From: an uncultured Candidatus Peribacteria bacterium
GTDB taxonomy: Bacteria; Patescibacteriota; Gracilibacteria; BD1-5; UBA2023
Direction of reading: 5' to 3'
Length of the DNA: 64,000 nucleotides
Assembly (NCBI GenBank): GCA_964596675.1
Contig: CAZQUZ010000003.1
Location: forward strand, 30,198 to 94,197
Every line of letters starts with the position of its first letter. Positions within the stretch are counted from its first letter, which is position 1. The notes beneath the pieces were generated by a model, which was not told the origin of the DNA, did not search any database, and worked only from the letters and a program-made list of their open reading frames with translations. Below are positions 8,821-53,940 of this stretch, piece after piece. Both the position numbers and the translations under genes were made by a program.

Positions 8821-8825
8821 TATGT

Positions 8826-14736: not shown

Positions 14737-14744
14737 AGATGTAT

Positions 14745-17174: not shown

Positions 17175-17227
17175 CTTGCGAATGATACAAAAATCTTTAT
17201 AGTCATACCATATTATCTTTCCTCGAT

Positions 17228-18175: not shown

Positions 18176-18190
18176 AAAAACGGGGAATTT

Positions 18191-18219
18191 TTGCATTTTT
18201 ATGAGCTTTTTAGTATAAT
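18191..18219 (+). promoter_or_regulatory. near-consensus promoter TTGCAT-N17-TATAAT
   Basis: The -10 box ends 6 nt before ATG 18226, which implies a leaderless or nearly leaderless mRNA. Confidence 0.6.
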
Positions 18220-18225
18220 GACTTC

Positions 18226-20649
18226 ATGCAGATAGCGGAAGTCATTTTTCTTATTTTAGGAGTACTCTTCGTGGTATGAGTTTTTTATATTCTCACGAAA
18301 AAGAAGATCGCACTAAAACGCTCACTCGATATGAGATTTCTCCGTATTATCATCGGACGGAAAGATAGTGAAAAAGATGAGCGATGAGACACTGTCAAAG
18401 ACTTTCGTGAGCAGATATCTATCATGGAGCAACTCCTCGCAAGTATGAAGTCTCTCTATGTAGGAAATGCGATGGGATGGCTCTTTGGTCAGGAGTATAT
18501 CTCTCTCGAATATATCGCCCATAAACAGGAAATATACTTTTATATCGTCGTACCAAAAAAATCGAAAATCCTTGTCGAAAAACAGATTCTCGGTTTTTAT
18601 CCAGATGCGAGTATCGAGGAGACGGATGAAGTCAATATTTTCGAAGGGCGGAGTGTGGTGCGAGGCGAGATCTTGAAGCTCAAGAAACATGATGAATTCC
18701 CAATACGTACCTATCAAAAACTCGAGACTGACCCGATGAATAGCCTCCTTTCTGCACTCGGAAAACTCAACGAGGAAGAGTCGAGCTCCATCCAGATTCT
18801 CATGAGACCAGTAGATGATGACTGGCAAGACCGAATCCGTAAACATATAAAAAAATCTGAGAAAAAATGATGACACCATATGTCATGGAATCCTCTCGAT
18901 TGGATACTTTGATTTATCGATGCATTTACACGCTGAAACTCTGAAAAATCATCTTCAGATGAACATGATGAGAGTGAGCCGATCGATGAAGAAGGGCTTA
19001 TGAAAGAAAAAATAAAAAAGACAGGCTATCAGGTAACAATACGTGTTATTACGACTGGTAATGACGAGAATGATGTCTATGCGGAGCTCCAAAATATTCT
19101 TTCTGCATTTTCTCAGTTCGCTTCACCGATGTATAACCGATTTAAAGCCGTAAAGAAAAAATCTATCTCACTCCTCATCAATAACTATATTTTTCGTCAA
19201 TTTAGTGCTTGGCAAGGTGGATATATACTCAATAGTGAGGAGCTCGCGACACTTTTTCACTTTCCGCATAGTAAATATAATAAGCAACCTGAGATTCGTT
19301 GGCAGCGGTTTAAGCTGATAAAGGCACCAACCAATATCGCAAAAGAGTGACTGTATATCGGAGATAATGTATTTCGTGGAGAGAAAAAACCGATTTTTAT
19401 CAAAAATGAGGACCGATTTCGACATTTTTATGTCATCGGACAGACTGGTACAGGTAAATCATCTATCCTATCGACGATGGCGCGCCAAGATGTGCGCGAG
19501 TGACGTGGACTTGCCATACTCGACCCACACGGTGACCTCGCGAAAGAACTCGTATGATATATCCCTAGAGAACGTGCTGATGATTTGGTATATTTTGACC
19601 CTGGGGATCTCGCACGTCCTATGGGGCTGAATATGCTCGAAGCCGCGAATGATGACGAAAAACAAATGGTCGTAGCCGATGCTACGAATATCATGATAAA
19701 ACTCTTTGGAAGTGAGATATTCGGACCTCGTATCCAGGACTACTTTCGCAATGGATGTCTCACCCTCATGGACTATCCACAAGGCTGAGCCATCACTGAT
19801 ATTATCAGACTCTTTACAGATGATAACTTCCAGCGGGAGCGCCGAGCTACCCTAAAAAATGCAGTCGTAAAAGCCTGGTGGGATTATACGTATGCCAAGA
19901 TGGGTGAGCGAGAAAAAGGAGAAATTATCCCATATTTCGCAGCGAAATTCGGACAATTTATCACCAATACCATGATGCGTAATATCGTGTGACAGACGAA
20001 GAGCGCATTCGATATCGGAGAGATCATGAACAATGAAAAACTCCTCCTCATCTCACTCTCGAAAGGTATCATCGGTGATCTGAACTCGACGCTGCTCGGT
20101 CTCATCCTCGTCTCGAAGATACAGATCGCAGCCCTACGCAGACAAAATATGGCGAAAGAGGATCGTAAAGATTTCTTTCTCTATATCGACGAGTTCCAGA
20201 ACTATGTGACCGACTCTATCGAGTCTATCCTCTCAGAAGCTCGTAAGTATCGCCTCGGACTCGTCATCGCGCATCAGTACCTCGGACAACTCGAGAAGTC
20301 AGATGCTCTCACGAAATCGAATCTGAATCTCAAGTGAGCCATATTTGGTAACGTAGGAACTGTCATGAGTTATAAGCTCGGTGCGGAGGATGCTGAGTTC
20401 ATGGCGAAGCAATTTGCTCCAGCATACTCTGAGCAAGACTTCGTCAATATGGATAAGTTTAAGGCTGCACTCAAACTCTCGGTCGATAATCAACCAACAC
20501 CAGGATTCTCCCTCTCACCACCGAATCCATTTGCTGAGATGCCAGATGCAAAAATCGGAGCCGCCCTGAAAGAGCTTTCGCGATTAAAGTATGGTCGCGA
20601 GAGAGAGTTCGTCGAGAAAGAAATTATTTATCGCATAGGTGCTGTCTAA
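18226..20649 (+). CDS. VirD4/TraG/TraD-like type IV coupling ATPase, paralog 2 (807 aa)
   Basis: N-terminal TM anchor (IFLILGVLFVVGVFYIL). Motifs: Walker A VIGQTGTGKSSI, LYIDEFQNY, SEARKYRLGLVIAHQY. It joins six track ORFs (18424, 19000, 19585, 20026, 20365...) in one frame. The N-domain is paralogous to gene 14745-17174. Confidence 0.8.
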
Positions 20650-20651
20650 TT

Positions 20652-21611
20652 ATGAAATTTTTTTATACTTTCATCTCGCTTGTGACTGTCTCATCCAGTA
20701 TCATACCGATAGTGGCAGCTGAGGATATGGTCGGCTGTGATACGAAGACGTATGCATGCTATACGCAAAAAGTATCTCAGAGTTGCACGAAAACAGGACT
20801 TCCCTGGACCAAAAATCCGAATCTTTGAAAGACAAGTTCCTGCGACTATCCTGATTTTACAGAGGAAGGACTAAAAAGTGTAGTGAATTGTATGGAAAAT
20901 GCGGATACAAAAAGCGGTGGAGGATTTCTCGAGAATCTCACTCTTTCGAATCTCGGTAATATCCCTGGATTTCGTACTACAGAAATCGCACGAAAAATAT
21001 ATCGAAAAAATATGAATGCCGTATTTGGCTGTGCTGTGCTAGCAAGTCGCCAGGACAAGCTCACTCGACTGGAGGAATCCATACGCTGAAATTCTCAGGC
21101 GAGCGACATCCAAAAAAGTCTAGAAAAAGAACGGAAAAAATATGAGTCTCTTATGTCACGCATGAATTGTAATCAAAATCGTACAGAAAGTCCCGAAGAT
21201 AAAGTCATCGACCGGCTTTCTGCGAGCGCGATGCAAGAATATTGTAGTTATACGTATTATCTCGATTATCTCGAGGCAAATCTACAAAATGATTTTTCTG
21301 AAGCAGAAAAGACAGAGTTATCACTCCGCGATGTCACGCTCCAAAATCGTGCTACTACCACAGAACAAGCCGGGAAAATATGGAGAACATACCAAGCTAC
21401 GATTGACTCAGAGCGCTCCAGAGCACATGAAACTGTACCCAAGGCCATCCTCGCTTACCAAGAAATGGATCGTACTTATATCACACATATCCTTCTCGTC
21501 ATCATTTTCGATGACTATCTGAAACTCAGGGGCAACCTCGATACCTACCTCGCTCTCATTTCCCAAACATTCGAAAAAGCATATAATGCGCAGGATGCAC
21601 GGCAAAGATAA
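20652..21611 (+). CDS. secreted Cys-rich protein (hypothetical, 319 aa)
   Basis: ATG lies 2 nt after the upstream stop. It has a signal peptide (MKFFYTFISLVTVSSSIIPIVAA) and several Cys in the N-terminal third. It joins track ORFs 20883-21089 and 21153-21611. Confidence 0.6.
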
Positions 21612-22017: not shown

Positions 22018-22102
22018 TGGTGCCCAGGAAGAGACTTGAACTCTTACACCGTACGGCAACGGCTTCTAAGACCGTCGTGTCTACCAATTCCACCACCTGG
22101 GC
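22018..22102 (-). tRNA. tRNA-Leu(TAG)
   Basis: 85 nt. Acceptor GCCCAGG/CCTGGGC, anticodon loop CTTAGAA, long variable arm, T-loop TTCAAGT, and an encoded CCA. Confidence 0.9.
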
Positions 22103-22114
22103 AGAAAAAACTAA

Positions 22115-22199
22115 TGGTGGGCCGGGTAGGATTCGAACCTACGAAGTCGTAGACAAAGGATTTACAGTCCTCCCCATTTGACCGCTCTGGAACCGACCC
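22115..22199 (-). tRNA. tRNA-Tyr(GTA)
   Basis: 85 nt. Acceptor GGGTCGG/CCGGCCC, anticodon loop CTGTAAA, long variable arm, T-loop TTCGAAT, and an encoded CCA. Confidence 0.9.
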
Positions 22200-22288
22200 A
22201 GAAAAAAAGTTTTAACCCTCAGAATTTTAGATTTTCGATATTGTTTTTTACCAAAATCCAATATTCCAAACATTAAAACTCCAGAGAA

Positions 22289-22364
22289 TGGAGCCACCAA
22301 TCAGACTTGAACTGATGACCGCCGGTTTACAAAACCGATGCTCTACCAACTGAGCTATGGTGGC
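22289..22364 (-). tRNA. tRNA-Thr(TGT)
   Basis: 76 nt. Acceptor GCCACCA/TGGTGGC, D-arm GCTCAGTTGGTAGAGC, anticodon loop TTTGTAA, T-loop TTCAAGT, and an encoded CCA. Confidence 0.9.
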
Positions 22365-23071: not shown

Positions 23072-25216
23072 ATGGCTATTTCTAAGGATCTAAAAGGAAT
23101 CCGAAACTTTGGTATCTGTGCGCATATCGATGCGGGTAAGACGACTACGTCTGAGCGTGTCCTTTTCTATAGCGGTATCACACATAAGATCGGTGAAGTA
23201 CACGATGGTGCGGCGACTATGGACTGGATGGCTCAGGAGCAAGAGCGTGGTATCACTATCACCTCTGCTGCGACGACTACGACATGGAACGGCGTACAGC
23301 TCAATCTCATCGATACTCCTGGACACGTAGACTTTACGATCGAGGTAGAGCGTTCTATGCGTGTACTCGACGGTGCTGTAGCAGTATTCGATGCATCACA
23401 GGGTGTAGAGCCACAGTCTGAGACAGTATGGAAGCAGGCAGATAAATACGGAGTTCCTCGTATCGCATTCGCGAATAAGATGGATAAGACGGGTGGTAAC
23501 TTTATGATGACATATGAGTCTATCATAAAGCGTCTCGCTGGAAACAAAGTCATCCCTATCCAGCTCCCTATCGGTCAGGAAAACGACTTCGAAGGTATCA
23601 TCTCTCTCGTAAATATGCGTGCATATAAGTTCGAGGGAAAGATGGGTGAGAAGGTCGTAGAGATGGATATCCCTGAGTCACATAAGGCTGAGGCTCAGAA
23701 ATGGCATGAAGCCCTCGTCGAGAAAGCTGCAGAGCAAGATGACGAGCTCATGAACAAGTTCTTCGAAAATGGAACTCTCACAGAAGCTGAGATAAAGCAA
23801 GGTATCCGAAAATGAGTAATCGCTGATGCACTCTACCCACTCATGTGTGGTAGTGCCCTCATGAATAAGTGAGTCCAGCTCGTCCTCGATGCGGTAGTAG
23901 ACTACCTCCCATCTCCACTCGATGTAAACGAGGGAACTATCACTGGTACTGATGTCGATGATATCGAGACAAAAATCACCCTCAAACAAGATCCAAATGA
24001 AACTCTTGGTGCTATCGCGTTTAAGATCATGACAGATCCATTCGTCGGACGTATCACATTCGTACGTGTCTATGCTGGTACTCTAAAATCTGGTACCTAC
24101 GTACTGAACTCTGTCTCTGGTGAGAGAGAGCGTATCGGACGCCTGCTCCAGATGCACGCGAACAACCGTACTGAGATCGATGAGATCCCAGCAGGTAATA
24201 TCGGTGCAGTTATCGGACTCAAGGATACAAAAACTGGTGACACGCTCTGTGATGAGAACAAGCCTCTCGTCCTCGAACGTATGATATTTCCAGAGCCAGT
24301 AATCTCTATCTCTGTAGAGCCAAAGACAAAGGCTGATCAGGAAAAAATGGGTATGGCGCTCAATAAACTCGCTGAAGAAGATCCATCATTCCGTGTATCA
24401 TCCAATGCTGAAACTGGTCAGACGATCATGGCGGGTATGGGAGAGCTTCACCTCGAAATCCTCGTAGATCGTATGAAGCGTGAGTTTAAGGTCGAGGCCA
24501 ATGTCGGTGCTCCTCAGGTAGCATACCGTGAAACCATCACTGCTACTGTAACTGACGAGCGTGGAGTCCATAAAAAACAATCAGGAGGTCGTGGACAGTT
24601 CGGTGATGTCGTCATGACATTCGAGCCGATCACTCCAGAGATGCGTGCTGCAGATCCGGAAGCTCTTGCTTCAGAAACAGTGTTTGTAAACAAAATCGTC
24701 GGATGAGTCGTCCCTCGTGAGTTCATCCCTGCGATCGAAAAGGGTCTCGTACAGGCATACGCTCGTGGTATTATCGCTGGATATCCTATCGTGGATGTCC
24801 GTGCGACACTCACATTCGGTAGCTACCATGATGTCGACTCAAATGAGCTCGCGTTCCGTATGGCTGCGATTAAGGCATTCCGCCAGGCTGCGAAAAAAGC
24901 TCGCCCAGCCCTCCTCGAGCCTATCATGCTCGTAGAGGTGAATACTCCAGAAGAGTACATGGGTGATGTCCTCGGAAACCTCAATAGTAAGCGTGGTCAG
25001 ATCATCGAGATGACAGAACGTGGTATGGCAAAAATCATCCGTGCTCATGTACCACTCTCAGAAATGTTCGGATACTCTACAGATCTCCGCTCATCGAGCC
25101 AGGGTCGTGCGACATACGCTATGGAGTTTGCTCACTATGCTCAGGTACCAAATAATATCACAGAAAAAATCCGTGCAGAACGTGGTGTGAAATTCGAGGA
25201 GGACGAAGAAGAATAG
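23072..25216 (+). CDS. fusA: elongation factor G
   Basis: 714 aa. Motifs [17 protein letters not shown] and NKMD. It has three in-frame TGA codons. Those at 23870-23872 and 24704-24706 fall on the conserved Gly of NKGVQ and IVGGVVP. Confidence 0.97.
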
Positions 25217-27471: not shown

Positions 27472-28806
27472 TTATTTTTCTGAATCTTTCAGAAACCATT
27501 TTTTCCATAATTTTTGGAAAAAATTCGGCTTTCTAAATTCATTTTTGACAGATTCTTCAGATATAGGATCTGAGGGATTTGGATTGGGTACTCCACTCAG
27601 GGGTGAGTACTCTTCTTTTTTTTGAGTATCTAGCTTTTTAGATACTTCATCTTTATTGTTTATTATAGGTTTTTGTGCAGATTTCACTTCTGGAGATACT
27701 GTGGATATATGGGTTTGAGGTTCTAGAGATTTTTCTATAGGATGATTCTGTTTTTTATTTTTAATCTTCTTCACTCCTATACTCACCTTTTTTTCTACAC
27801 TACCATCCGTATGAGTCTGAAGTACATCCTGTGGTATGATAATGGTTTCTTCCCCATCTGTATAGGTAGAGACGATTCTCTGGGATGCGTCTGTCAATTC
27901 TCATATATAGAACTGGTTCTCTTTAAATACTCATATAAATCTATTTCCATTCCTGATATACAATCCCTTCCCATCTCGCATATCATTTTTCCACTCTCAT
28001 TTATAATAGTCTCCATTCTGAAAATTCATAATCCCGTACCCACTGCGTAGATCTGATTCATAGGTTCACCTATATTCTCATTCTGGATATTGTACTGGGA
28101 TGACATCTTCCTTTTTCTGGATAGGAATTTCAGTATCTTCATGGGAAACCTCCGCATCAGATTCGTTTTCCCCGTCTTTCGTACTAGTAGTACCATCTGC
28201 ATTATAGAATTTTCATGTCTCGAAATCATCATCTCGAAACGTTCAGTCATAGTACGACCCGTCAGAAAAAACCAACTGCCCACCACCATTTCGCATATCA
28301 TCTTTCCACTCTCACGAATAACCATTTTCGGAACTATCAATGAATAATCATATACCATGACGTTTACCCTCTACAAACTGTCATGTATATACTCCACTAC
28401 CTGGATATTCTTTTCTTTGGAAATCATCATCTACAGTTACCACCGTTGGCATCGGGGCAGCCTCTACTGGAGGCACTAGTCATTCTGAGATAGTGTTATC
28501 TGGTATGGAACTATCCGATGGTGCGATACTCTGAGGAGTAAGTGTCAAAATATCACCGAGAAGTGCTGTCTTTTTTGGTCTCGCTGAAAATGGTGCATTC
28601 TCTGCCACTTCTTCTGCGAGGGTTTTTAGCATTCTTTTATTCTCTCTATCGAGAGATAGAAAGATCTTTTCGAGTTCCTTTGTACTCTTATTTGCATTTT
28701 CACTATCACCTGCTCGTAATAGGGCATGGGTGATTCATTCTCATTTTCTTATTTTTACTTCTCATTTTTGGATGTTTTCACGTACTGATTCTATATCGAG
28801 TGGCAT
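27472..28806 (-). CDS. MORN-repeat protein (444 aa)
   Basis: I translated it codon by codon under code 25. MORN-like units: YTGQFVEGKRHGIG, YSGEWKDDMRNGGG, YDGTFRDD, YRGTYESDLRSGYG, YKGEWKNDMRDGKG. It has a Lys/Pro-rich C-terminal tail. Confidence 0.75.
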
Positions 28807-28892
28807 AAGTATATATATAATAGAGTTATAATAATAGCGCTTTTTTATAAATTTGTCAAAAACAATGCGTAATAGGAGGCTATTTTGGCATC

Positions 28893-29837
28893 CTAAAATA
28901 AATATGGGGCATATAGAGTAAAACTACTTCCTGATTTGGCAAATGTGGAATCGAGCAATATCTGGGAAGCTTGGCTTATTCAGAGTCATTCTCATACAAG
29001 TAATGTAATTTCTAATGTTGCTGGATTTCTCTGGATAGCATAGGTCGGACGTATCTGAAAACTCTGTCCATCTTTATCTATTCACTTTATGAATCCATCA
29101 CTTGCGATGGAAAGATAATTCTTTTTCATATCTCCGCTGAGTGAGATATTCATCTGAAGTCCATCTCATGTATCCTCTAGAAGTCGGAGATCTACACGTA
29201 TAGAATGATATGTTTTTTGAAAATGTACTCATCACACACCATCTGACTCTATCCATCCATCTAAAGGATCAAACATATACCCATTCGTAGCCTGAAAAAA
29301 TGGCTGTATCTCTATGGCTGTTTGTTTCTCATGAAATCATGGATGCTGTAGAAATTTTTGGCGAATCCTGAGTGACTCATCTTCCAGGTACACTACTTCA
29401 GGTGAGACTGTGGTGTTTTGAGTTGTATATTTGGATTTTTGGGATACATTCTCTGGTGTAGAGGTAAGTACTCCATCTTGGATAGATTGTATTTTATTTT
29501 TCAGTTTATTTGGTACATTCTCGACTACCTCAGGAGTGATAGATTCAGCTTTTTTAGCATCTTTTTTTATCCGTGATCTTCTAGCAGCATTACCAGCGGC
29601 AAGTAAAACTCATCATAATCATAAGAGTTCTACTCCATAGCTTCTAGTCTCTCATGAGACATCTATACCGATATTATGAGCATACTGTTGCATCTCTGGA
29701 GATGATGTTATTATTCGCTCGATATTTGCACGCACCTCCTCTTGGGTCATCTCATGTACTGGCTTTGCGGATAGAGTCGGCGTGGATAGCATGAGACTCC
29801 CTGCGGTAAAAAGAGATGTAAGGAGTTTTTTTGACAT
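28893..29837 (-). CDS. secreted/membrane hypothetical protein (314 aa), island gene 1
   Basis: Signal peptide MSKKLLTSLFTAGSLMLSTPTLSA and a Gly-rich TM segment VELLGLGGVLLAAG followed by RRSRIKK. It has about 13 in-frame TGA codons. TAG stop at 28893-28895. Confidence 0.55.
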
Positions 29838-29851
29838 AATAAAACCGATAC

Positions 29852-30631
29852 TTATCGTACTAAAAATGCTTGTTTTGTCTCCAAGAGATATAATTTTTCC
29901 CTATCCGTCATCTTGGGAATTTTTTTATTTGAGGCTATTTCTTTATTTCGATCTAAAAATATCTGAAAATCTCCAAGAGTATAGGATTGATTTTTATAAT
30001 CAGGGGTAAATCAATTCTCTCGCGTGAGGAACTCATGAACTTTTCATGGAAATCAGATTAATGGCTGATTTTGTATACTCTCTGGGGTATATACTGTTTT
30101 TTCTATTTTCTTATAGAGCAGATTATTTTTTTCATCGAGTGAAACTATAAACATCCCATCAGAATATGTTTTATCTGGATTTTCATGAAATCCATTCGAT
30201 ACAAGGAGTTCATGTGTTTTGTTCATAAATCCATTCGGCCTTACTTCCATATCCTCTGATAAAAATCATTTTCATATATCTTGTGATGGGGTAATATGTT
30301 TCGCATATTTCTCCATAAGAGTATCTATCTTCGCATCATCGAGTCGTATGATATCCCCCTCACGCACACTATGTACGGCTCTATACCCATATTTTTTGGT
30401 AGATATTCTATTTGGTGTGAGCGCATGCTCATCAGTACTAATCACTCGCGAAAGATCACGCAAGAGTTTACGGGTATTATTATCTAATTTTTCTTTTTTT
30501 AAATCTATACCCATAGCCACGGCAAGCTGCTGGGAGATACCATTTCCTCTTTCGATAGTGATACCCTTTTTTAAGGCCTCTGAGAGCTTATCGGATTGCT
30601 CTGATGTAAGGAGATTTTCTCGGGTTGACAT
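29852..30631 (-). CDS. hypothetical protein (259 aa), island gene 2
   Basis: Track ORFs 30272-30631 and 30053-30250 share a frame and join through TGA. TAA stop at 29852-29854. No motif recognised. Confidence 0.55.
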
Positions 30632-30767
30632 ATATACAAAATAATTATATATAATATATCACTATTTTTAGAGTATGTCAAATAATATTACTCTCCCTTT
30701 GGGTTATAAACTTTCTTTTTATATTCAGTTATGATACGATATATATAGTAATTTTACCTTTCTCTAT

Positions 30768-31967
30768 ATGGCTGAAATGAATAATACTCTGGAACAGGCT
30801 CCAGAGAAATCACTTACAAATAATACTGACTATATCCGTGCATCACTCGGGGATGCATATACATATTATCAAAATAATAAATCTCTCGATGGCTGGGAAA
30901 CAAAAGATAGCTATAGCCTCTCGAATGCGATGGGTGCTCATCAGATAGCGAGTAATACTCTCCATAAGCGTGAGAACATCACTCTACAAGATATCGATAC
31001 GGCATTGGATCACACATCATATAGTTCCACCCCTGAATACAGGGAAGCCTATCTCGCATATGCTCGTGGGAAGTGGGGCATCATACAAGCTGCGAAAACA
31101 GAAGAAAATCTACTCAAAAAGGAAGTGCTATGAAATCCTGAGTCTGCTCAAGTTACTAAAGAAGAATCCACTGTAAACTCGGAACAAAAACCTGAAACAA
31201 AGCCTGTACCCGAAAAGAATACTAAAAATAATCTTACTGAACAACAGGAAAATCTCTCAACACCTGGGACTAAGGGGGGTACAAGCAATCAATCATCTGA
31301 GAAAAGAGAAGGGATGAGTGATAAGTCCATCTTAGAATATAATAAGCAGTATATAGAGAGGAACTGACTATGAGAAGGTAGTTATTATACTAAACAATTC
31401 CCTGAATTAGAAGATCCAACTAAAAAGAATATTATCACCATACAACATAGGTTGAATACATGATTCGTAAATACAACACAAACCATAAAACTCACTCAAG
31501 ATGGAATATTATGAAAAAATACATTGGCAGCAATGCGGAAATTTATAGATACTAAAAAAGGGGAACAAAAAAAAGTAGACAATGGAAACAAGCCACTGTC
31601 GAATGTAGAAGAGAGAAACAAAGAAAAGATTATCTGAGAATGAAGCAAATTTATAGATAAAATCATAGCGAATAAAGAAATTTTTAATAAATTTATTGAC
31701 CTGAATGTTAAACAATATTATCTGGAAGATATTACTCCATTTAATAAGATAAAATATTTTGTGAATATTGAATGAGCTAAGCAAGGAGATCTACAGATGA
31801 GTACAAATATTGGCCACGCATATGAGAATGTGCTGAGTGGAACGAATCTAACTCAATGGAGGAGTCTCACGGAGAGAGGGAAAGAGGCTATTATACAGGA
31901 ATTAAATACTATATGGAAAAAGCGAGCAAATACAGAAATCCAGAAGATGAATACCACTAAAAAGTAA
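30768..31967 (+). CDS. hypothetical protein with putative peptidoglycan-binding-like repeat (399 aa), island gene 3
   Basis: Open through 8 TGA codons. The segment IQHRLNTGFVNTTQTIKLTQDGILGKNTLAAMRKFI resembles a PG_binding_1 helix pair. The central linker is low-complexity and rich in Lys, Glu and Thr. Confidence 0.6.
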
Positions 31968-31992
31968 CATTGTCTAATCCATTATTAGGAAT

Positions 31993-32024
31993 AAATCACC
32001 CCCATGTAGAATGGGGGTGATTTA
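31993..32024. terminator. bidirectional terminator
   Basis: 12-bp stem AAATCACCCCCA / TGGGGGTGATTT between convergent genes. Confidence 0.65.
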
Positions 32025-32043
32025 TTCAATATGTATAACTCTA

Positions 32044-34188
32044 TTATATTACAGTGGAGAATTGGCTAGTCATTTTCTCTGTCATTTCTTTTTGTGTATA
32101 TTTCTTATCTTTTATCACTACTGATTCAGTATTACCATAGATAGCGAGGAGTGTGGTAGCGATAGTTCCACCGAGTACGAGTCATCCGGCCACGTGACGC
32201 AGTGGTCACATATACCAGAGTATTGCTATAGAGGCTCCTGCACCTGCGATAAAAATAGCCCTTTGTGGTAGAGTGAGAGCTGCCCACACTTCAGCGATAA
32301 AACCACCGATTTGTGATAGTGATGACTCCGCGAGTCACTCGAAAATATGACGTATCATCTTATATGCTTCAGGACTGAGATATTGAGGCTTCTGCATTTC
32401 TGCGATGAGCTGCTTGTCAAAATGTTTTCATCGAAATGTTCCATCTTCTCATAAAATATTCCACATCTTCATATACATATATGCTTCTTGTCATGGATTC
32501 ATCTCGGCTTTCGTCATATTTTTCCCTCCGCAGAGAGCATACATACGAAATACATCTGCGAGACTCATAGATGCCTTGCTTGATAAAAAGTCTTGATAAA
32601 CATCTTTCTGACCAAATGAAAAATCACTACTGAGTGTCTGCTGAAATTCTCCCCAAAATTTAACTATATTTTTGAGTGTTGATTTATCTTTCTCAGAGAG
32701 AGAAGCCAGTTCATCGATTTTAGCAGGAGTATAATTTTTTATATCATCACCATGCTGAGCGATTATATGAGTGAGGAGGCTCGAGGATATGTCTAGATTC
32801 TTGAGGATAGATTTATATTCTACATTTTGCATCAGTGATGACGCCGAGAGACCTTTGAGAGGCATATCGATATGATCGCTGATCTCTCAAAGAAACTTGC
32901 CGAGATCTCCAGGACCGGTAATAGCTGTACTTGGCTCTATATTTTCGAATTTTCCTGCGAATCCGAGATTGTTATGTAAATCTGCAAATATTGTATATAA
33001 TTTTGTATTTGCTCATACATTTTGATTCGGTGAATGCTGATTCAAAAAGGCTCGTCATTTTCATGTCGTAATCGACTCTAAAACATGAAACAATAAATCA
33101 CCACTTATGGATTCATCTTGGATTCATATGTCTTTTTTGAGTCCGCTCTTATCAGAGGTTTTGCGATACTTATTATAAAGATCGATAGATTGTCCGAACG
33201 TGAGTTTCTGAAAAATCTCATTATGAAATATACCATCTATCTGTGGGTAGGGAAAGAGTTTATCCTTCAAGAGAGGCTGTATATACATCCTCACGAATCA
33301 TTTCGTCGCACCGATATAGAGCATCTGATGTTCTGAGTTTTCAGCTATAGACTCAGTCGAGGCAGTATTTGCCTCTTCTCATGAAGATACTGTAATTCAT
33401 GAATCTATTCAGGCCAGCTTCAGCTCTTCTGGTGTCAGAGATTTAGATACATCGATACCCATGAGTCTTGCTAAAAATCAGTAAAACATCACCTTAATAC
33501 TTCCCCACATACCATCGAATCATCCATTTTTCTTTTCGGAAAGAGCTTCTTTCATATCATTCGCGATACTCATCTCATCCCATCAGAGAAATTCTGCGAA
33601 TTTCTTCATAGGATTTTTTTTCATTTCTGTAAATTCTGTATCCACTCATTTTATAGCATCTCCAGCAATATCTGTCAATCATTTCTGAGTTTCTTTGAAT
33701 ATGGAGGTACCACTATTTTCTCCTACGAGAGCTGTCGATATCAATCCTCATCCTATTGCTGTCTGGAGGGTGGCAATAGGGCTTTCTGTGAGTGAGGATT
33801 TTTTAGAATTATTATTCTCGACTTCTTGCTGGAGTTTGGCTAGATTTTTTTCCATATCTACCAAGGCTCTATTAAACTCTTTTTGTTTATTAGATTCTGC
33901 ATTATGTTTACGCAGAGTTTGGATAGTACTCTCGAGTTGTTCCTTAAGGGGTATATTCATTCTGAGTGCGTCGTCTGTTTTTATGGTAGAGAGTAGATTG
34001 ATAGCCTTAGTATATTCGGCTTGTACAGTTTTGTACTCTTCACTCACTATCTTACCAATATCTGGCACTGCTCTATCAAATTTTTGCCAGCTCGCATCAA
34101 GTGTAGCACGAAAATTCCGAAGCAATGTATCTGATGGCATTGATTTCGGAGTGACGGGGGAGTTTTTTAGAATTTCTGGCGTTGTCAT
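32044..34188 (-). CDS. large orphan membrane-anchored protein (714 aa), island gene 4
   Basis: Codon-by-codon code-25 translation gives one frame from ATG 34188 to TAA 32044-32046, with 21 in-frame TGA codons and no TAA or TAG. It has an N-terminal coiled-coil-like region. The C-terminal glycine-zipper helices are GGFIAEVWAALTLPQRAIFIAGAGASIAILWYMG and GGLVLGGTIATTLLAIYG. Confidence 0.65.
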
Positions 34189-34197
34189 ATTAAAAGA

Positions 34198-37100
34198 TTA
34201 TTTAATCATATATTGTATAAGTGCGACAGTATCAGATCATGGATACTCTAGATCAAAATCTGTTATATACTCAGCAAGTAATTTACCCTTCCATCCACCG
34301 AATGCTGTAGCAACGGCTAGATTTTTTAACAGCTCTTCTCGGGTTATTTCTTTACCTCCTGCAGCATCCGCTGCTGTAAAAGCCACAGTTTGGATGATTC
34401 ACATTCTCATATTTTCTTTAGAAAATGCTGCTTTTCCAACCTCCATAATCTTCTTTGATGTTTCCTTAAAACCATTTTTTAAGATCATAGCATCGAGTAA
34501 GTCTCCGTAGAACCGCCGTCCTGTAATAGTTTCTAATTTTCCTCAAAGAATTTTTGATCATTTTCAAAGCTGTTCGGACAAAGATACTCCCTGTATCTTA
34601 TCCCATGATCGATTGATCCATTCTTTTGAGTTCATGGCAAGTGACTTTACTGTATTTTGATTGTTGGTACCTGATTCTGTATGGGATGAGGTTGTATTTT
34701 TTGTATTCCCTTTTGTTAGGCGCGCATTTCATGTCGAATCTACCATAAAGTCAGGTCTTTGTTCACTCGCATGTACTTCTCCAGATTTTCATCGAGTCAA
34801 TTTTATATTCCCGAGACGATTCATCCCTCTCATGGCTATTGCCATCATAAATCCTTGTATAATAGACTCATGAGACCACTCACCCCCATCAAGATAGACA
34901 TTCAACATTCCTCATCAGATACCGAGCATTGTTCCATCGATAGCAAGACGTTGCATAGCGGCGGGAATATTATAAGATTTCTGATCTAATTGAGGTGCTA
35001 TATTGAGTTTACCGTGCAACTGGGAGAGCAACTTACCCGCTCACATAAACGCGATAGAAGTCATCCATCCACTTGTATCAAATGTCTGATTTATAGCACC
35101 ATTTATCCCATTTTCATAACCACCGACTACAGCACTGTATCCTACATGAAATGCTGTACCAGATCCGATTGCTCCTATAGCTCCAGCACCGATACGCCCT
35201 AGGGTGCTGAGGTTTCGAAGCTTCTCCAATCGGGCCATAAGTGCTGCTCACCTCACACCATTTACAGCCCAATATCCAGCACTTCCTGTAAATGCACCTG
35301 CTGCCACTGCAACTACCTGAACCGCTAAAGTCTCAAGCGCAAGACTATACCAGTCAGCCCGAGTATCTTTAATAGTAAATAATCCAATTCATTCTATATC
35401 TTTAAAAAGCTCTATCTCTCCAATAGTTCATTTTGATGTTCATTGTTTTACTGCATCGTATGCAAGATTATATTGTAGTGCCATCATCATAGCATTTTCT
35501 TCATCGATTTTCATCATAGCATCCAGCATAACAGAATCATTCTTTGCTTCTTTGGCAAAGCGATTTTTCCTCTCTCCCTGCATAGCATAATATCGCGCTC
35601 TTTTTTCTATCATATCCTCTGTACGATCAGGAGAGAGTCAGAGCTCTCGAATCGCATTTTCTGTAAAATTTCCTGACTGTAATTTTTGTAATTGTGTCGT
35701 AAGTAGGGTTTTATCTACTAATTTTTCTGTAAGTATATCACTCACGATTGTGTATCCATCTAAACCATCTTTTATATACTCATAGAATTTTATCGTAGCA
35801 TCTGGATGATTACTTCGTAATAGCCCTTTCAGATTCTGAAGATGTTTTTCATTCAGATCCGGCAACCACTTTCATAGAATTTTATCGATAGTATCGAAGA
35901 ATTGTTCAGGAGATAATTTCCCAGATAATAGATTTTCTATTTCCTTATTTGCATTTATCTTATTTCCAAGGGCTTGGATAAGGAGCAGGTATTTTTCGAG
36001 TATTTTTTGTTGGTCCTTAAACTTCTCGAATCCATTTTTTGCTTCTGGTGAAAGAGTGCTATATTCGAATAATTTTTGGTTACCATCTTTGCCAATAATG
36101 TACATATTCCCTTCACGAAAAGCCATAACTGGCATCCAAATATTGGATTCTTTTGCTTCTGTTGTATTTGTAATTACTGGTTTCCCTGAAAGGTTATCAT
36201 TTTTTTTTATATCTTCCTCTCATATTGGAAGAGAATGTGAAATAATATATGCCTCCATCTGACTGAGCGTCATATTTTGAGCACGAGCAGCATCTGTCTT
36301 ACGGAGATTCTCGATGATTGGATTTTGTGAAATTCGAGCAAAATAATTGAGAATTGTTATACGAATTGACTCATTCTCTAATATTGTATCGATAGCTTTT
36401 TTTCATGCTGGATCGAGCGTATCGAATCCAATACTTGCTTTTATCTTTTCATTTGTGGCTCATTTTTCATCGTGGATATGGAGCCATTGATAAACACTTA
36501 AAGAACCGATAGGCGTAACGATATTATTAAAAACATCGATATTACTATCTTCTTCGAGTCATAGGGTGGCCCTTCTGAGACTCTGAGTATCTGTGATATG
36601 TATGGATGTATTTTCCTTCTCTTTATAAGGGATGTTCGACACTCAGGCTATTTCAGGTGTTATATCTTCTCATCTGGAATCTCCATTCTCTCATGTTGTA
36701 GAATTTATAGGTTTTATACCATTAAAAATTTCTCCCAATTTATCAAAATTCGAGATCGCACCTACACCGAGCATAGCACCGAGAGTCTTCCAGAATCAGA
36801 GTCATTTCGATGAAAACATAGACCATAATATGCCTCATATGATAGCGACACCTCCGAGAGGACCGGCCTCTTGTATCATCGTACCGAAAAAATCAGTTGT
36901 CCCACTTACAGCCACTCATACTCATTTACCTATACCACCCGCCACAGCACCGACTCATCGTCCCGTCTTTGCAGCTACAGAGTTATCAGCAGGATTATTT
37001 CCATTTTCTATAGGATTTATGGCTGCTTGCGTAGCTTCTCGTATGAGTGGTGAATTATTTATCTTTTCTGCGGCACTGAGAACGGGTCAGATAGATTGAT

Positions 37101-38076
37101 ATTGTTCTACTGTAAGGGGAAAATCTATATTATTGAGATAGCGTGCCGATGAGAGAAATGATTGTTCAGAGGCAGTAAGAGTGCCTCATTGTGATTTTTT
37201 ACGTAAAAATGATGTATAATCTTCTTTTGTCACTTTATCAGAATATATAAGTTCCCCATTTTCATTCTTTTTCGCCGTGTCACTTACGCTCTTACTATAA
37301 TTCGCAAATGATGGATTATTAGCATACAATAATCCTGATTGTAATGCTGAGACAAGTACATTAGATTTTGCGAGATTATGATTTATCTTTGTTTCCACTT
37401 CGACTCTATCATTTTTCTGAGAGTCTATGCGTATCTGATTCTGTGATGTAAATGTAAGTTGGTATCCGAGTCCCTGAAGATCACTGAGCAACATTCCGCC
37501 GAGCATACCACGTACGAGTGGTTCATATTTATGTATTTCTCGCATATCGAGATTTTTGGCTGCAGGGATATCCTGTATCCACTCCAGAGTAGCATATTGA
37601 TCTATCGTATTAATCGCTTTTTGGAGGTTGTCTAGACTCATTTCTGCTAAAAATACTCGGACTGATTCTGCTTTTTTTTCGACCTCATTTCTGATTTTTG
37701 TATCTACGGATTGTACATTTTCCTGACTCTCTATATTCACTACTTCTTCACTAGAAGTTAACGCCAAATTATTTCATTTTTTCTGGGGGAGCATGCGTTT
37801 TTGATTTCTAGAACTGTTGGTTTTTATAGTATTTTTTTGTTTCTCATAACTATTCATGAGAGTTTCATATTCGCGAATCTGGCTCTCCATAAGAGCATCC
37901 TCTCTTTGCGGTTGGAGGATATTTTGTGCTTGCTCTTGTGGTGTCATTTCTTTTCTATATTTTTCTATCTTTTCTCTCATCTCTTTTCTATCGAGCAACG
38001 TTTCTTTTTTTATATTCCCAGATTTGAGTATATCGATTTGTTTCTGGAGCTCTTGATGCAATTCTCTGTCAGACAT
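34198..38076 (-). CDS. giant orphan protein with glycine-zipper membrane segments (1292 aa), island gene 5
   Basis: Codon-by-codon code-25 translation gives one frame joining track ORFs 37774-38076, 37186-37767, 35872-36135, 35638-35865 and 35041-35238, with 32 in-frame TGA codons. An in-frame TAA lies 9 nt upstream of ATG 38076. TAA stop at 34198-34200, 9 nt before the next gene. Gly-rich hydrophobic blocks lie around nt 36780-36960 and 35040-35330. Confidence 0.65.
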
Positions 38077-38176
38077 AAACTTATATTAAAAATGTAATTA
38101 CCCTTTCACTCTACCATATTTGGCTATATTTCGCAAATATTGAGAGCAAATTATTGAGTTTTAGGGAGAATTATAT

Positions 38177-38217
38177 AAAAAAATACTATAAATGCAATTT
38201 ATTCATAGTATTTTTTA
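38177..38217 (-). terminator. terminator after island gene 6
   Basis: Stem ATACTAT / ATAGTAT flanked by A- and T-runs. Confidence 0.5.
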
Positions 38218-38238
38218 TGAGTCAAGATATTTTTAGAA

Positions 38239-39105
38239 TTACACATTCCTGCTGAGAATATCCATATATCCATCCAATCGAGTGATATATGTATCGAGAG
38301 ATTTTTCTTCTGATGGTGATATTTTTTCTTTTAGGAACATCGTATGTCGAAGCTGATTCTGAAGTGTACGGATATATCATATTTGAGTAGGAATCCCCTG
38401 GATAGCTTCTGCAATTTCATGAAAGGAAATATAATCCGATGATGTTAAGTCTACTCACTCTTTTGCTTTTGCAGATTGTATTTCTATAGAAGTCCATTGT
38501 ATTTTTTCCTCGATATTCGATAGTGTTGTTTGGATTTTTCAGATAATAGTATTAAATCGCTCTACATCTTTCGTCACAGGGATAGTAGCTGCACCTTTAA
38601 CTATTGCAGATTGCATATGTTTCTGCGCTGATCGAGTCAATCCGGAAGGTGCTACACTTTTAAAATATTCGATTATCTGTTTTTTTTCTTGGTGAACTCG
38701 TATATCTGCACGACCAGCATAGGACTGAATGATGTTTTGTATATATATCAGCTCATTACCAAATTCTTTTAGAGCTAATTCAAGACGTTTCCATTGATTG
38801 CTAGCGACGAGTTGGAGCTCTGTTTCTTTGCGAGCATATTCGGAAGTAGGCAACCATCTTTTAGTGGTATCTAGTATTTCCATTGCTCTGCCATGAAATT
38901 CCTCATTAACATGATTTACTGTAAGTCACAAAGAAATCACATTTATATATTGCAGAGGATTCGAAGATCAAAATATACTTGTTTTAAAAACAAATTCATC
39001 TGGTATAATATATCTTCATCACGAATTGTCAGTAACAGAGTTTGCTGTAGAAGGGGGATTCTCTTCTTGTTCGGGATTGTCCGATATATTATGTGGATTA
39101 TTCAT
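38239..39105 (-). CDS. hypothetical alpha-helical protein (288 aa), island gene 6
   Basis: Track ORF 38539-38883 is extended downstream through TGA to TAA at 38239-38241, and upstream in an open frame to ATG 39105. An alternative start is ATG 38883. A TTGACT-N17-TATAAT-like promoter lies about 30 nt upstream of 39105. Confidence 0.5.
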
Positions 39106-39344
39106 AAATATGAAGTGAAATAATAATATTATTATATAATATAATTTTCATAAAGTCAATATATCTATTTCAATTAATTGATTGACAAATGTATATAAAT
39201 GTATCGAAATACACATTTTTATTTGCTTTTTTTCTTTTCTCTTCTATACTCCGAGCGAATTTTATTTCTTATGTGGTGTACACTGTAGTATCCGGTATAG
39301 AGCCGGGAAGATTCACCCATTATTTTTTCACTCCCATTTCGATT

Positions 39345-41230: not shown

Positions 41231-42235
41231 ATGTTACAGATAAACCCCGAGACAACTGAACATCAAGATAACCCTATATCCTCTTTAGAAACAGAAAGAC
41301 AGGTGAGGTATTTTTCTGAACGAAGTATGAATATCCTTGAAACCTGAGGCAATATACTCGTGCTAGGTGGTGGTATATTGGTATTGTGAACTAAGAATAC
41401 AGGACCTATATTAGAGCTTTTAGGAACCACTACTATGCTATACTGATGATATTTTTTACATAGACTTGATCGCATGATATCCGAATTCAGTTGAACAGAA
41501 CCGTACGTTACAAAATTCAAAAGACAACTACGCTCAAGCCATATACACCATAATCCCGCATATACACTAGAACCTTTACCCACAAACCTAAATAATATCA
41601 CCTGGTATGTAAATGTATCACCATATATTAGATGGAGGGTTCCTGTGATTCAAAATAAAATATCAGATTGATTAAAATTTTATCCTGTAGAGCTGTTAGA
41701 AAAACATCTTTCGACTATTATAATAGAGTCTTTTCCTGGTACAATCAATAAACTTTGATCAGCTTCTCGGGATCAAAAAACAATACGCATAGGACCCGTC
41801 GCTGATCCTTTATTAGAAATAATTTTGCATCATGAGATGGTACATATGATCTTTTTACACTGAGTGATAAAAAAATTTATCAGAGAATGGACGACTCAAT
41901 TTTGAGAATATAATGGAGAACACCATGATTATGCTCCACACCCATTGGAAAATAGGAAAACATATGGTGCAATATGAGGGGCTCCGGAAGATATGGCAAC
42001 TATTGGACAATATTTATTCTCGAAGTCGGGATGGGGAACCTTAGAAGAAACACTCTATCGCGATACAACGTGAAGCATACCCAGTATATTACAACAAAAA
42101 ATCGATACTCTTATACGATTTTTCGAGAAACAATCAAAATGAAAAATGAATAAAGAATATTTTAACCTCATAAGAATAGGGGAAATAACAAATGGTGAAG
42201 ATGCTCAAACATATTTTAGAACCGCGCGAAAGTAA
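41231..42235 (+). CDS. hypothetical protein with HExxH motif (putative Zn-metallopeptidase, 334 aa)
   Basis: Open only under code 25 (about 12 TGA codons). It contains LEIILHHEMVHMIF and a hydrophobic N-terminal segment (NILVLGGGILVLG). Confidence 0.55.
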
Positions 42236-48183: not shown

Positions 48184-49599
48184 TTAAAGCCCCTCCATTT
48201 CCATACCGATGAGTATATTCATCTCTGCAGCATACTCGAGGGGGAGCTCTTTCATGAGTGGAGAGACGAATCCTCTGACGATAAGTGTCTTTGCCTCATC
48301 TTCTGGGATACCATGCGACTCCAGATAAAAGAGCACATCCTCATGAATCTTCCCGACACTCGCCTCATGCGCGACGAGCGCATCATCAGTCGCGACACGG
48401 ATATCCGGGATGGTATCTGAGCGAGAGATACTATCGAGGATGAGTCCATCACAGTCGATCTTCGCGACAGCACCGGTGGCAGATTTTTTGATATCGAGAA
48501 GTCCTCTATAAGTAGAGATACCTCAGGCTTTCGAGAGGCTCTTCGAGACGACTTCACTCGCGGTGTTTTTCCCGATATGGATGACTTTCGCACCGGTATC
48601 AGTATTTTGTCCTGCATTTGCGAATGCGATACCGAAATGGAGCGCTCTCGAATCATCTCACTTTAGAACTGAGCATGGATAGAGCATCGTGACTCATGAG
48701 CCGAGATTGCCACCGACCCATTCGATAGAGCCTCATGTCTCGACGATAGCTCGCTTGGTATTGAGATTATAGGTGTCGATAGACCAGTTTTCGACCGATG
48801 AATATCGCATCTTCGCATGAGCTCCGACATATATCTCCACACATCCTGCATGGAGGCTCGATGTCCCATACTTCGGTGCACTACAGCCCTCGATATAGTG
48901 AGCCTCGGCCTCATCCTCGATGATGATAAGTGTATGCTCGAACTGACCTCCTGCCTTTACATTCATACGGAAATATGCCTGCAGCGGGTCTGCTATCTTT
49001 ACTCAGCGTGGTATATAGAGAAATGTCCCACCACTCCAGACCGCACCGTGAAGTGCTGCGAACATATGATCTCACATCGGCACCGCTCGCATAAAGTGAC
49101 TTTTTACGAGAGCCTCATGGTCTCTGATAGCGACTGACATATCCTCGAAGATGACTCATTGCTCTTTGAGCTCTTCACGGAGATTATGATAGACGACTTC
49201 ACTGTCATACTGAGCTCAGACTCAGGCGAGCATAGCACGCTCTGCCTCTGGTATACCAAGTCGGTCGAAGGTATTTTTTATCGCTTCTGGGACATCATCC
49301 CATGACTTCGCATCACCTCATCCCTCTGCTTTCGCAAAATAGTATATACTTTCGAGGTCAAGTGCTTCGAGCGAAGGTCACCACGTCGGCTTCGAAAAAG
49401 TACGATATTTTTCGAGAGATTTCAGTCGATGTGTGAGCATCCACTCTGGTTCTTCATTCGATAGAGATATCTGGCGCACGACCGACTCATCGAGTCATGC
49501 CTTGGCCATCTGAGCATAGACGACACTATCACTCCCATCGAGTGTCTCGCGAGATATATCTCAGAAAGCATGGATGTCATCCTTATCCTGTGTAGTCAT
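48184..49599 (-). CDS. sufB: Fe-S cluster assembly protein SufB
   Basis: 471 aa with [11 protein letters not shown] and [20 protein letters not shown]. It has many in-frame TGA codons. Confidence 0.92.
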
Positions 49600-49632: not shown

Positions 49633-49998
49633 CTGTCATTCTGGGCTTGTCCCAGAATCTAGAAAAATAACATTTATAGTACTAATTCATCATATAAATC
49701 CTTCCAATCTGGGTTATTTTCTTCTATTGTATTGATTTTATATTCTCTTTTCCAGTTTTTAATTCTTTTTTCGGCACTTAATGCCTCATTTATATCTGAG
49801 AAGTTCTCATACCATACGAGCATTTTTACAGTATACTTCTTCGTAAATCCATCAACCAATCATTCTCTATGTTCATACATTCTACGCATTAGATTATTCG
49901 TAACTCAGACATAGAGAGTTCCATTTCTTTTTGATGCAAGTATGTAAACAGAATAGGTATTCATAGTGACTGGATTCTGGCATACGCCAGAATGACAG
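49633..49998 (-). mobile_element. GIY-YIG nuclease cassette bounded by hairpin-forming terminal inverted repeats
   Basis: Left end CTGTCATTCTGGGCTTGTCCCAGAATCTAG (49633-49662). Right end CTGGATTCTGGCATACGCCAGAATGACAG (49970-49998). The two are reverse complements of one another in their outer parts (CTGTCATTCTGG / CCAGAATGACAG), and each forms its own hairpin. The cassette sits in the sufC-sufB spacer. Confidence 0.5.
49674..49964 (-). CDS. GIY-YIG nuclease superfamily protein (UPF0213/COG2827-like, 96 aa)
   Basis: MNTYSVYILASKRNGTLYVGVTNNLMRRMYEHREG..., with two in-frame TGA codons. This is the track ORF 49674-49859 extended to ATG 49964. Confidence 0.85.
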
Positions 49999-50013
49999 AA
50001 AAAAATCCATATA

Positions 50014-50742
50014 CTAAAATCCATTTTGTCTGACGTCTTCTATCATCTCATGTCAGCCATGGCGATCTATTTGTCAAGACTTCATAATGATCACACTATC
50101 AACCTTTATGGAGTCGAGAAGATGAAAATTATGCGAAATAATAATGATTAACTTCGACATACTTCGCCACTTTTCGATGTGTCTGGCGAGCATCTCTATC
50201 GCACCGATATCGAGTCCTGCATCGATCTCATCGAGACATACGACGCTCGGATCGAGCAGTGCTATCTGGAGCATCTCGATGCGACGCTTCTCCCCTCCAG
50301 AAAATCCTACATACAGATCTCTATCGAGGAACTTCGCATCGATACCATATTCTGGGAGGAGCTTCTCCACCATACGGCGGAATACGAATGGTGTCGGCGG
50401 CTTCTCGGTCGGATGAGTGAGTATAAAATGATGGTTATAGATAGTGCGGAGATACTCTATGAGGCGTATCCCTGGTATCTCTGGTACACTCTGAAATGAG
50501 AGAAACATACCCTTTCTGGCTAGAGCATCTGGTGAGAGTCCAGTGAGAGACTCACCATCTAGGAGCATATCTCCAGTGAGCGTATATCTCGGATGATGAA
50601 AGAGCGCGAATGAGAGGGATGACTTCCCACTCCCATTCTCCCCGAGGAGTGCATAGGTCTGGCCTGGAGCGAATGTATAGGAGATATCATGGATAATCTC
50701 CTTTTCTCCTACCGTGACGGATATGTGGTCGAGTACTAACAT
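50014..50742 (-). CDS. sufC: Fe-S cluster assembly ATPase SufC
   Basis: 242 aa with Walker A GENGSGKSS, FSGGEKRR and LDEIDAGLD. The start is ATG 50742, which is internal to track ORF 50074-50922. It reads through TGA 50074-50076 to TAG at 50014-50016. Confidence 0.9.
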
Positions 50743-50817: not shown

Positions 50818-50857
50818 AAATGGGAATCTATCAGAAAGTAGTATCTCGTAAGAGAAA

Positions 50858-53755: not shown

Positions 53756-53940
53756 AAATATATATGGGTAAAAGAATAAAAAATGCGGATATCTCCGCGG
53801 AGCGGGAACAGGATAATCATGGTCAGTGATCACCCGAGGGTGATAATTTCTGGTCAGGAAATTATCGCCTTTCTCCTTTTAACGGGAGAGAGGTTAAAGC
53901 TTTAACCTCAAGTTATTTGCATAACGAGAGGATTTGGTAT

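Follow-up and report, generated by a model that had tools for sequence, protein, structure and literature searches.

What do the two long, adjacent genes at positions 32044-38076 of a stretch of DNA from an uncultured Candidatus Peribacteria bacterium encode, and with which known system, if any, do they belong? The stretch, 64,000 nt of contig CAZQUZ010000003.1 (GenBank assembly GCA_964596675.1, positions 30,198 to 94,197), is called the window below, and coordinates refer to it unless another locus is named. An earlier note, made from its letters, had proposed here an operon of two proteins (A and B) with glycine-zipper membrane segments. Our analysis revealed that protein B is a mosaic of two recombining modules, and we tentatively read A and B as an envelope or host-interface complex that is confined to the lineage and subject to diversifying selection, a reading in which our confidence falls a little short of even.

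Gene A (34198-38076, minus strand) encodes 1292 aa from its first ATG and contains 32 in-frame TGA codons; gene B (32044-34188, minus strand) encodes 714 aa from its first ATG and contains 21. With TGA read as sense, the minus-strand frames are free of stops over 34198-38085 and 32044-34197, whereas a table 11 reading of 32044-38076 yields open reading frames (ORFs) of at most 271 aa. Between the genes lies a single short feature:

34189-34197, minus strand: A-B spacer of 9 nt, TAA-TCTTTTAAT-ATG.

The claimed two-gene operon needing code 25 was borne out; the frames are open only with TGA as sense. The recoding is window-wide: summed ORFs of at least 100 aa amount to 62 kb under code 11 versus 169 kb when TGA is not a stop, a 2.7-fold difference. 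Of the three TGAs in EF-G (23072-25216), two fall on invariant glycines, those of NKGVQ and KGGVIP, when the protein is aligned with its E. coli counterpart; in the B family alignment TGA faces G 45 times and W 4 times. These alignments prove that TGA encodes Gly (code 25), not Trp, in the window. Four tRNA genes were found there (10782-10866; 22018-22364, minus strand), namely Leu-CAG, Leu-TAG, Tyr-GTA and Thr-TGT, and the tRNA-Gly(UCA) expected for code 25 is absent among them. The TGA share of Gly codons is ~0-5% in EF-G, BipA and an S-layer-type (SLH) protein, ~17% on average in the window, and 28-53% (36% overall) in lineage-specific genes (g26-g32, g34) with low G+C at third codon positions (GC3), which suggests that TGA is avoided in highly expressed genes. 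A promoter scan gave matches at chance level, and a terminator scan detected none after B. The two genes are best explained as a co-transcribed, chromosomal pair in a bacterium of Gracilibacteria type (code 25).

A word-indexed search of 5.8 billion proteins returned one relative of A, P0001 (37% identity over A aa 118-439), and 15 relatives of B, all of 644-730 aa; the window's own proteins were not found in that database. When 1.84 billion representatives were searched exhaustively with P0001 (phmmer), there were 34 matches only, and the full-length ones all have the same architecture. P0024, a 1247-aa protein of locus L012, is 34% identical to A over 1200 residues and is a full-length ortholog. 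A search with a 10-sequence profile of the A N-domain returned a single protein, its prefilter having probably been saturated by low-complexity words. When one genome per GTDB species was scanned, relatives of B occurred only in metagenome-assembled genomes (MAGs) of Candidatus Gracilibacteria bacterium, and one such MAG encodes a CTP synthase with 75% identity to the one in the window. In metagenomes, a scan with the A N-domain found nothing and a scan with the B family found one 2-kb contig. The A and B families were not described in the literature that our searches found.

A and B are real genes, because full-length orthologs or homologs exist in independent assemblies (for A the 1247-aa protein of L012, for B the proteins of 644-730 aa), which also supports the long ORFs of the earlier note. 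The opposite explanation, that these frames are an assembly or annotation artefact, could appeal to their need for a non-standard code and to the lack of the window's proteins in the protein database. Against this stand the proof of code 25, the independent full-length orthologs, and a ~96%-identical strain (L018) in which the frame is kept across the end of A, the spacer and the start of B; we regard an artefact as hardly credible.

Protein B is composed of the following parts, together with a cassette that varies between strains:

33409-34188, minus strand: B N-module, aa 1-260, a conserved helical head with invariant columns in the family alignment.
33409-33435, minus strand: junction motif TPEELKLAG, aa 252-260 (family form TPEE.KLAG), the boundary between N- and C-module.
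32302-33408, minus strand: B C-module, aa 261-629, variable and reshuffled between strains.
32131-32271, minus strand: C-terminal hydrophobic helix pair, aa 640-686, at a position conserved in the family and followed by a 28-aa tail.
30568-33361: strain-variable cassette of B C-module plus g29, 2794 nt versus 1274 unrelated nt in L018.

The N-module carries the motifs SDTLLxNFRATLxxxW and KKNPxKKxAEF...GGFDG...FYGFLA, and within it a weak Gly/Ala hydrophobic segment at aa 138-156. At the junction, E254, E255 and A259 are invariant, and P253, L258 and G260 are kept by 90% of sequences or more. When the parts before and after this motif are compared separately, their identities are discordant in both directions:

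P0005 and P0008: N-module 99%, C-module 24%.
P0003 and P0011: N-module 96%, C-module 26%.
Window B and P0002: N-module 95%, C-module 27%.
P0005 and P0014: N-module 35%, C-module 90%.
P0008 and P0012: N-module 49%, C-module 83%.
P0010 and P0015: N-module 42%, C-module 75%.

A breakpoint is visible in the DNA as well. L018, the contig that carries P0002, is 96-97% identical to the window from 34926 down to 33362 (blastn), a stretch comprising the last part of A, the spacer and the N-module of B. The similarity then breaks abruptly at nt 33362, at about codon 276 of B and 47 nt downstream of the junction motif, and is back at 79% in a homolog of gene g28. Because the N- and C-module identities are discordant across the motif and the DNA breakpoint in L018 is abrupt, we conclude that B is a mosaic whose modules recombine at the TPEE.KLAG junction, a property newly found here. 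Diverged as they are, the C-modules represent a single homologous module, always with the same hairpin at the end. The second gene of the cassette, g29 (30675-31967, plus strand), encodes 430 aa and is convergent to B.

Protein A is unrelated in sequence and is divided as follows:

37777-38076, minus strand: aa 1-100, a K/E/Q/R-rich head (47 of 100 residues), poorly conserved and helical in the model of a homolog.
37027-37725, minus strand: aa 118-350, the conserved N-domain, common to all A-like proteins and to the gene1 proteins described below.
36736-36981, minus strand: block 1, aa 366-447, glycine-zipper hydrophobic, with three segments, conserved family-wide.
35365-36735, minus strand: aa 448-904, a helical middle that is specific to the A-type and common only to P0024.
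34801-35364, minus strand: block 2, aa 905-1092, Gly/Ala-rich, with 4-5 marginally hydrophobic segments, conserved in P0024.
34201-34800, minus strand: aa 1093-1292, the C-terminal region, including a low-complexity stretch.

The N-domain is marked by the motifs YEPxxxG, GYxxxF, LQSGxLY and EKxFLxS, and the gene1 profile matches A aa 41-350 with E = 4.9e-12 (hmmsearch). Block 1 holds the conserved motifs IGKVGGxIGK..., AIIGGxxWS and GFWKTLG; its 82 aa are 24% Gly, with 6 GxxxG and 16 small-xxx-small patterns. No similarity was found between the middle region of A and the A2-type, gene2 or gene3 families. Relative to L018, A differs by an in-frame indel of ~28 codons at aa ~1110-1137 (~34665-34749, minus strand), in the Asn/Thr/Ser-rich low-complexity stretch. 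The family as a whole is modular: the same combination of N-domain and glycine zipper occurs with at least three C-terminal kinds (the A-type, an A2-type with a PT-TG-like end, and the short gene1 type), and in locus L013 the modules are separate ORFs.

The coiled-coil head and the Gly/Ala-rich hydrophobic blocks described earlier are therefore present, roughly where they had been placed. Whether they are membrane segments was assessed with a Hessa-type sum per 19-aa stretch, a simple scale and not a trained predictor. The blocks of A score 4.3-8.8 kcal/mol versus 20.6 for the median stretch, and no stretch of A falls below 4; membrane proteins from the window that served as controls lie at -3.7 to 0 kcal/mol on the same scale. 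Block 1 is marginal in A (4.5-7.4 kcal/mol), and the L012 ortholog shows a clear transmembrane (TM) segment at this place (-0.4). For the two final helices of B the sums are 2.8 and 1.5 kcal/mol, so aa 640-686 likely form a membrane hairpin. By these scores the label of membrane segment is well supported for the C-terminal pair of B, while for the marginal blocks of A it is plausible only, and this part of the earlier proposal stands at that lower strength.

The surroundings of related genes gave the strongest functional clue. In the window as well as in L001, L012, L014, L015 and L016, a B-like gene comes immediately after an A-like one, with spacers of 11 nt (L001), 20 nt (L012), 28 nt (L015), 18 nt (L014; 22% GC, code 25) and 82 nt (L016), and a split form occurs in L013, so that the two genes co-occur across genomes. 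In L013 (Logan SRR22387871, 6588-12921; 52% GC, standard code) the A-like protein is encoded as two ORFs, the first covering the N-domain and glycine zipper in 537 aa and the second an A2-type C-part in 715 aa; after them come a fragment of 281 aa resembling a B C-module and an N_methyl pilin-like gene. This locus shows that the A and B families reach beyond code-25 lineages. An inverted partial duplicate lies upstream of its split cluster.

In other Gracilibacteria loci (L002/L010, L003, L005, L008 and L009) the A N-domain heads a shorter gene1 protein (580-720 aa), and the order is gene1, gene2, gene3, the latter two being large families of ORFs without known relatives (ORFans) like the first, and then a B-like gene. 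Judged by this gene order, the A/B pair is part of a larger conserved Gracilibacteria gene cluster. The four cluster families were considered as paralogs and rejected (hhalign probabilities <=1%), as was the idea that the C-terminal 840 aa of A are a gene2/gene3 fusion, given no similarity to either family. In three loci the gene just upstream of the A-like gene, or of gene1, encodes a peptidoglycan hydrolase. In L012 and L008 it is a membrane-anchored protein with a 3D-domain and PG_binding_1, and in L014 a Glucosaminidase (PF01832); because these enzymes come from unrelated families, the hydrolase has undergone non-orthologous replacement. It is this linkage to two unrelated wall-hydrolase families that constitutes the clue. 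The setting is chromosomal, with a ribosomal protein operon near the cluster in L003 and L005, and BipA, EF-G, Era and PyrG in the window. In L003 two paralogous AAA_14/DUF4143 ATPase genes (8733-9863 and 12338-13501, 32% identical) flank the B-like gene; such ATPase genes are often found in mobile or defence contexts.

The window further contains genes resembling a type IV secretion system (T4SS):

14739-21611, plus strand: T4SS-like cluster, adjoining pyrG (12132-13718), as in L008.

It comprises two paralogous VirB4/VirD4-like ATPases (14739-17174 and 18226-20649; 31% identical; TrwB_AAD_bind, DUF87, TraG-D_C), a protein of 336 aa in which the T4SS_pilin (PF18895) domain occurs three times (17165-18175), and an ORF for a secreted, Cys-rich product of 319 aa (20652-21611). 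The earlier note had seen no phage or T4SS context; its second half fails on the ATPases and pilin at 14739-20649, and its first half holds, as no capsid, tail or integrase genes were found in the window. A and B might be highly diverged membrane parts of such a machine, taking the role of VirB6/ConG/PrgH, and perhaps that of VirB8, from a site apart from virB4. In favour of this, the ATPases and pilin lie 11-17 kb from A/B in the window, and in L008 the homologous ORFan cluster lies ~9 kb from the orthologous ATPase and pyrG. VirB6 homologs are reported to be absent in Gracilibacteria, where T4SS genes are scattered and VirB3/TrsD are rarely beside virB4 (10.1101/2025.01.22.634366). A and B also share with VirB6/TrbL proteins (including ConG/PrgH/TcpH) the large size, Gly-rich putative membrane segments, and a wall hydrolase beside relatives. 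Gram-positive systems have VirB6-like genes beside one for a wall hydrolase, as with conG-cwlT of ICEBs1, and the pairing of hydrolase and A-like gene parallels this.

However, neither A nor B nor any of 42 family members matches TrbL/VirB6 (PF04610), PrgH-type or any other T4SS Pfam family at E <= 0.5. A polytopic core of at least five clear TM helices is lacking, B having two only, and a long soluble N-terminal head stands in place of an N-terminal polytopic core. No T4SS gene lies within 10 kb of the cluster in nine other loci (L001, L002, L003, L005, L010, L012, L014, L015 and L016), so that the genes are usually not near virB4. Moreover, A and B are hypervariable, and module swapping at strain level is unusual for core machine components. 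We consider a role as T4SS parts distinctly improbable.

Searches of family and structure collections addressed the remaining known kinds. A and B matched nothing in Pfam (also when searched as pieces, E <= 1), NCBIfam, PHROGs or PADLOC (anti-phage defence systems), and nothing among PDB sequences, either singly or as profiles. The Pfam glycine-zipper families gave no match at E <= 1, although the GxxxG pattern is present. The resemblance to tape-measure proteins, VirB6/TrbL and glycine-zipper toxins that the earlier note had pointed out is thus architectural only. Structure models were made from the homologs P0001 (A family) and P0003 (B family), not from the window proteins. The AlphaFold2 (AF2) model of the A family (P0001, 26 sequences) has a predicted local distance difference test score (pLDDT) mostly >90 over aa 10-320, with 333 residues >90, and Foldseek gave nothing better than E = 0.5 for it against the PDB. 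The model of the B family (first sequence P0003) is all-alpha with pLDDT 59.8, and Foldseek found no fold match.

When the P0001 model was compared with a viral library (BFVD), tape-measure proteins ranked at the top, yet non-significantly (E >= 0.012, probability <= 0.28, TM-score ~0.07), and these matches look like generic long-helix similarity. They bear on the view that the locus is the remnant of a prophage tail with A as its tape-measure protein. Besides the Foldseek ranking, this view draws on the length of A, its all-alpha character and internal Gly-rich hydrophobic segments, on the hydrolase genes near relatives, recalling the frequent association of tape-measure proteins with wall hydrolases, and on the GC of the surrounding island, which is below that of its surroundings. 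It is contradicted by the lack of any PHROG for A or B and of relatives in IMG/VR viral contigs. Nor does the window have a gene for a capsid, terminase, portal, tail or integrase, the annotated neighbours being housekeeping genes or lineage-specific ORFans. The cluster recurs instead at chromosomal sites beside ribosomal and translation genes. With neither homology nor neighbouring structural genes to indicate an ordinary prophage tail module, this explanation is largely refuted and retains next to no probability.

Two further layouts were compared. Glycine-zipper pore formers (GxxxGxxxG; VacA, Pfam Gly-zipper) resemble block 1 in its tandem small-xxx-small patterns within marginally hydrophobic helices, but pore formation by A or B would be conjectural and the Pfam match is lacking. 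EsaA/YueB-type proteins of the Gram-positive type VII secretion system T7SSb consist of one or more membrane segments, a helical region of ~450-600 aa and a cluster of membrane segments. The overall layout of A is similar, which serves as a lead only; unlike them, A has a 365-aa head before block 1, no sequence match appeared in the Pfam and PDB searches, and no EssC-type ATPase was seen.

The mosaicism of B also recalls polymorphic toxins (LXG/PT-TG, CdiA-CT and Rhs-style). A and B could form a polymorphic, contact-dependent, pore-forming effector, in which the N-modules would serve trafficking and the C-modules, with glycine-zipper helices, would oligomerise in the membrane of a target cell, host or competitor; the hydrolase would breach the target wall, and g29, exchanged along with the C-module, would act as a cognate partner or a protector. 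Such toxins likewise have a conserved N-module and a C-module swappable at an invariant motif, and the replacement of the C-module and g29 cassette between near-identical strains fits this pattern, as do the hydrolase linkage and the marginal hydrophobicity, which is typical of proteins inserting after secretion. Matches to PT-TG (Pre-toxin TG, PF14449) were obtained for 2 of 26 A-family members, P0034 and P0039, near threshold at best (P0034: E = 1.1e-4, 22.5 bits versus a cut-off of 23.5, thus below it), and one member gave a weak LXG match (E = 0.03).

In contrast, no toxin family rose above noise when the 26 A-family and 16 B-family members were scanned singly, and window A itself lacks the PT-TG-like end of the A2-type relatives, which was rejected with a family-specific hidden Markov model. 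The C-modules are homologous to each other and not unrelated toxins. Downstream genes differ between loci and are large, so that no small immunity-like gene is consistently present; g29, at its size and in convergent orientation, is unlike typical immunity genes, and nothing marks it as one. Genes of type V, VI or VII secretion systems (T5SS, T6SS, T7SS) were not seen. We therefore hold the effector to be unlikely, though not negligibly so.

Beyond generic architecture, A and B display the defining feature of no known family, and we return to the envelope or host-interface complex as the favoured reading. In it, A and B, unrelated and all-alpha, would work together in a cell-envelope complex at the symbiont surface or the host interface. 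The N-terminal helical head of each protein, without a signal peptide, would probably be cytoplasmic. A would be anchored in or on the membrane by the blocks at aa 366-447 and 905-1092, and B by the weak segment at aa 138-156 and its C-terminal hairpin, leaving the variable regions between and after the anchors exposed and free to evolve by module exchange, as would fit selection from hosts, phages or competitors. The neighbouring peptidoglycan hydrolase of several genomes might open the cell's own wall or that of the host for assembly of the complex or access to the target. In support, the hydrophobic blocks of both A and B stand out strongly from the remainder of each protein. Membrane topology, surface exposure, interaction of A with B and a role in host contact are what we infer from these features. 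The reading fits the idea that large membrane proteins in code-25 candidate phyla radiation (CPR) predators mediate host recognition and attachment, as has been thought (PMC8080830).

Several points weigh against it. The hydrophobic blocks of A are only marginally hydrophobic, and a signal peptide was found in neither A nor B. No recognisable peptidoglycan hydrolase adjoins A in the window itself, where g29 has a weak PG_binding_1-like motif only (E = 0.005 in a local database of ~300 proteins; BLASTP E = 0.75). The database homologs are code-4 translations with W at TGA, which degrades alignments and models, and the homolog AF2 models have low global confidence (predicted TM-score 0.36-0.37), the missing fold match being not conclusive for B. 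A bolder variant would have A and B, as marginally hydrophobic glycine-zipper proteins, inserted into the host membrane after the hydrolase cuts the wall; exported possibly via the T4SS-like apparatus, they would form an uptake conduit for host contents, with the modules setting host range. To this variant we give little credence.

Other bacteria serve Gracilibacteria and their code-25 relatives as hosts or prey, and the A/B pair and its cluster provide a concrete candidate for the molecules that make and exploit this cell-cell contact. It combines the lack of a detectable relative among characterised proteins, linkage to wall enzymes, and diversification by module exchange, as expected of proteins facing another organism. 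Its junction motif, which is invariant, its delimited variable cassette and its partner genes offer testable handles. CPR genomes commonly contain lineage-specific ORFans. What is new here are families and a cluster without detectable relatives among those known kinds that can be tested, rather than a mechanism.

The genes around A and B form an island with a composition of its own:

27472-39216: low-GC3, TGA-rich island around A/B, with the lineage-specific genes g26 (MORN repeats), g27, g28, g29 and g32.

Its GC3 is 0.24-0.33 versus ~0.45-0.55 elsewhere, and its ratio of TGA to Gly codons is 0.36 versus 0.17. When six other proteins of the island were searched against PHROGs, five had no family, and the MORN repeats of g26 matched one PHROG of unknown function. 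Parts of the island recur beside B-like genes in other loci. The N-terminal ~110 aa of g26 (27472-28806, minus strand) are 42% identical to the product of L010 12039-12629, the gene right after the B-like gene, and g28 (29852-30631, minus strand) has a GITIERGNGIS-type motif in common with g26; the g28 homolog of L018 (2707-3066) directly follows B. From these similarities, a small N-terminal module shared by g26, g28 and the L010 gene seems to travel with the cluster.

Further along the window, g34 (41231-42235, plus strand) is another low-GC3 gene, encoding 334 aa with 12 TGA codons. Its product has an N-terminal Gly-rich hydrophobic hairpin (GGNILVLGGGILVLG) and a HEMVH (HExxH) motif, has no Pfam match, and may be a membrane metallopeptidase. 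It was rejected as a counterpart of the M48 peptidase encoded after the B-like gene of L015, as the two have no similarity. The SLH-domain protein of 965 aa (50858-53755, minus strand) has zero TGA codons, and the strand opposite its gene is stop-free for 976 codons (50852-53779, plus strand), probably as a by-product of a composition rich in Thr, Ala, Ser and Val. Between SufB (48184-49599) and a SufC-like ABC ATPase (50014-50742) lies an ORF for a 116-aa GIY-YIG nuclease (49674-50024, minus strand), which overlaps the SufC-like ATPase gene by 11 nt.

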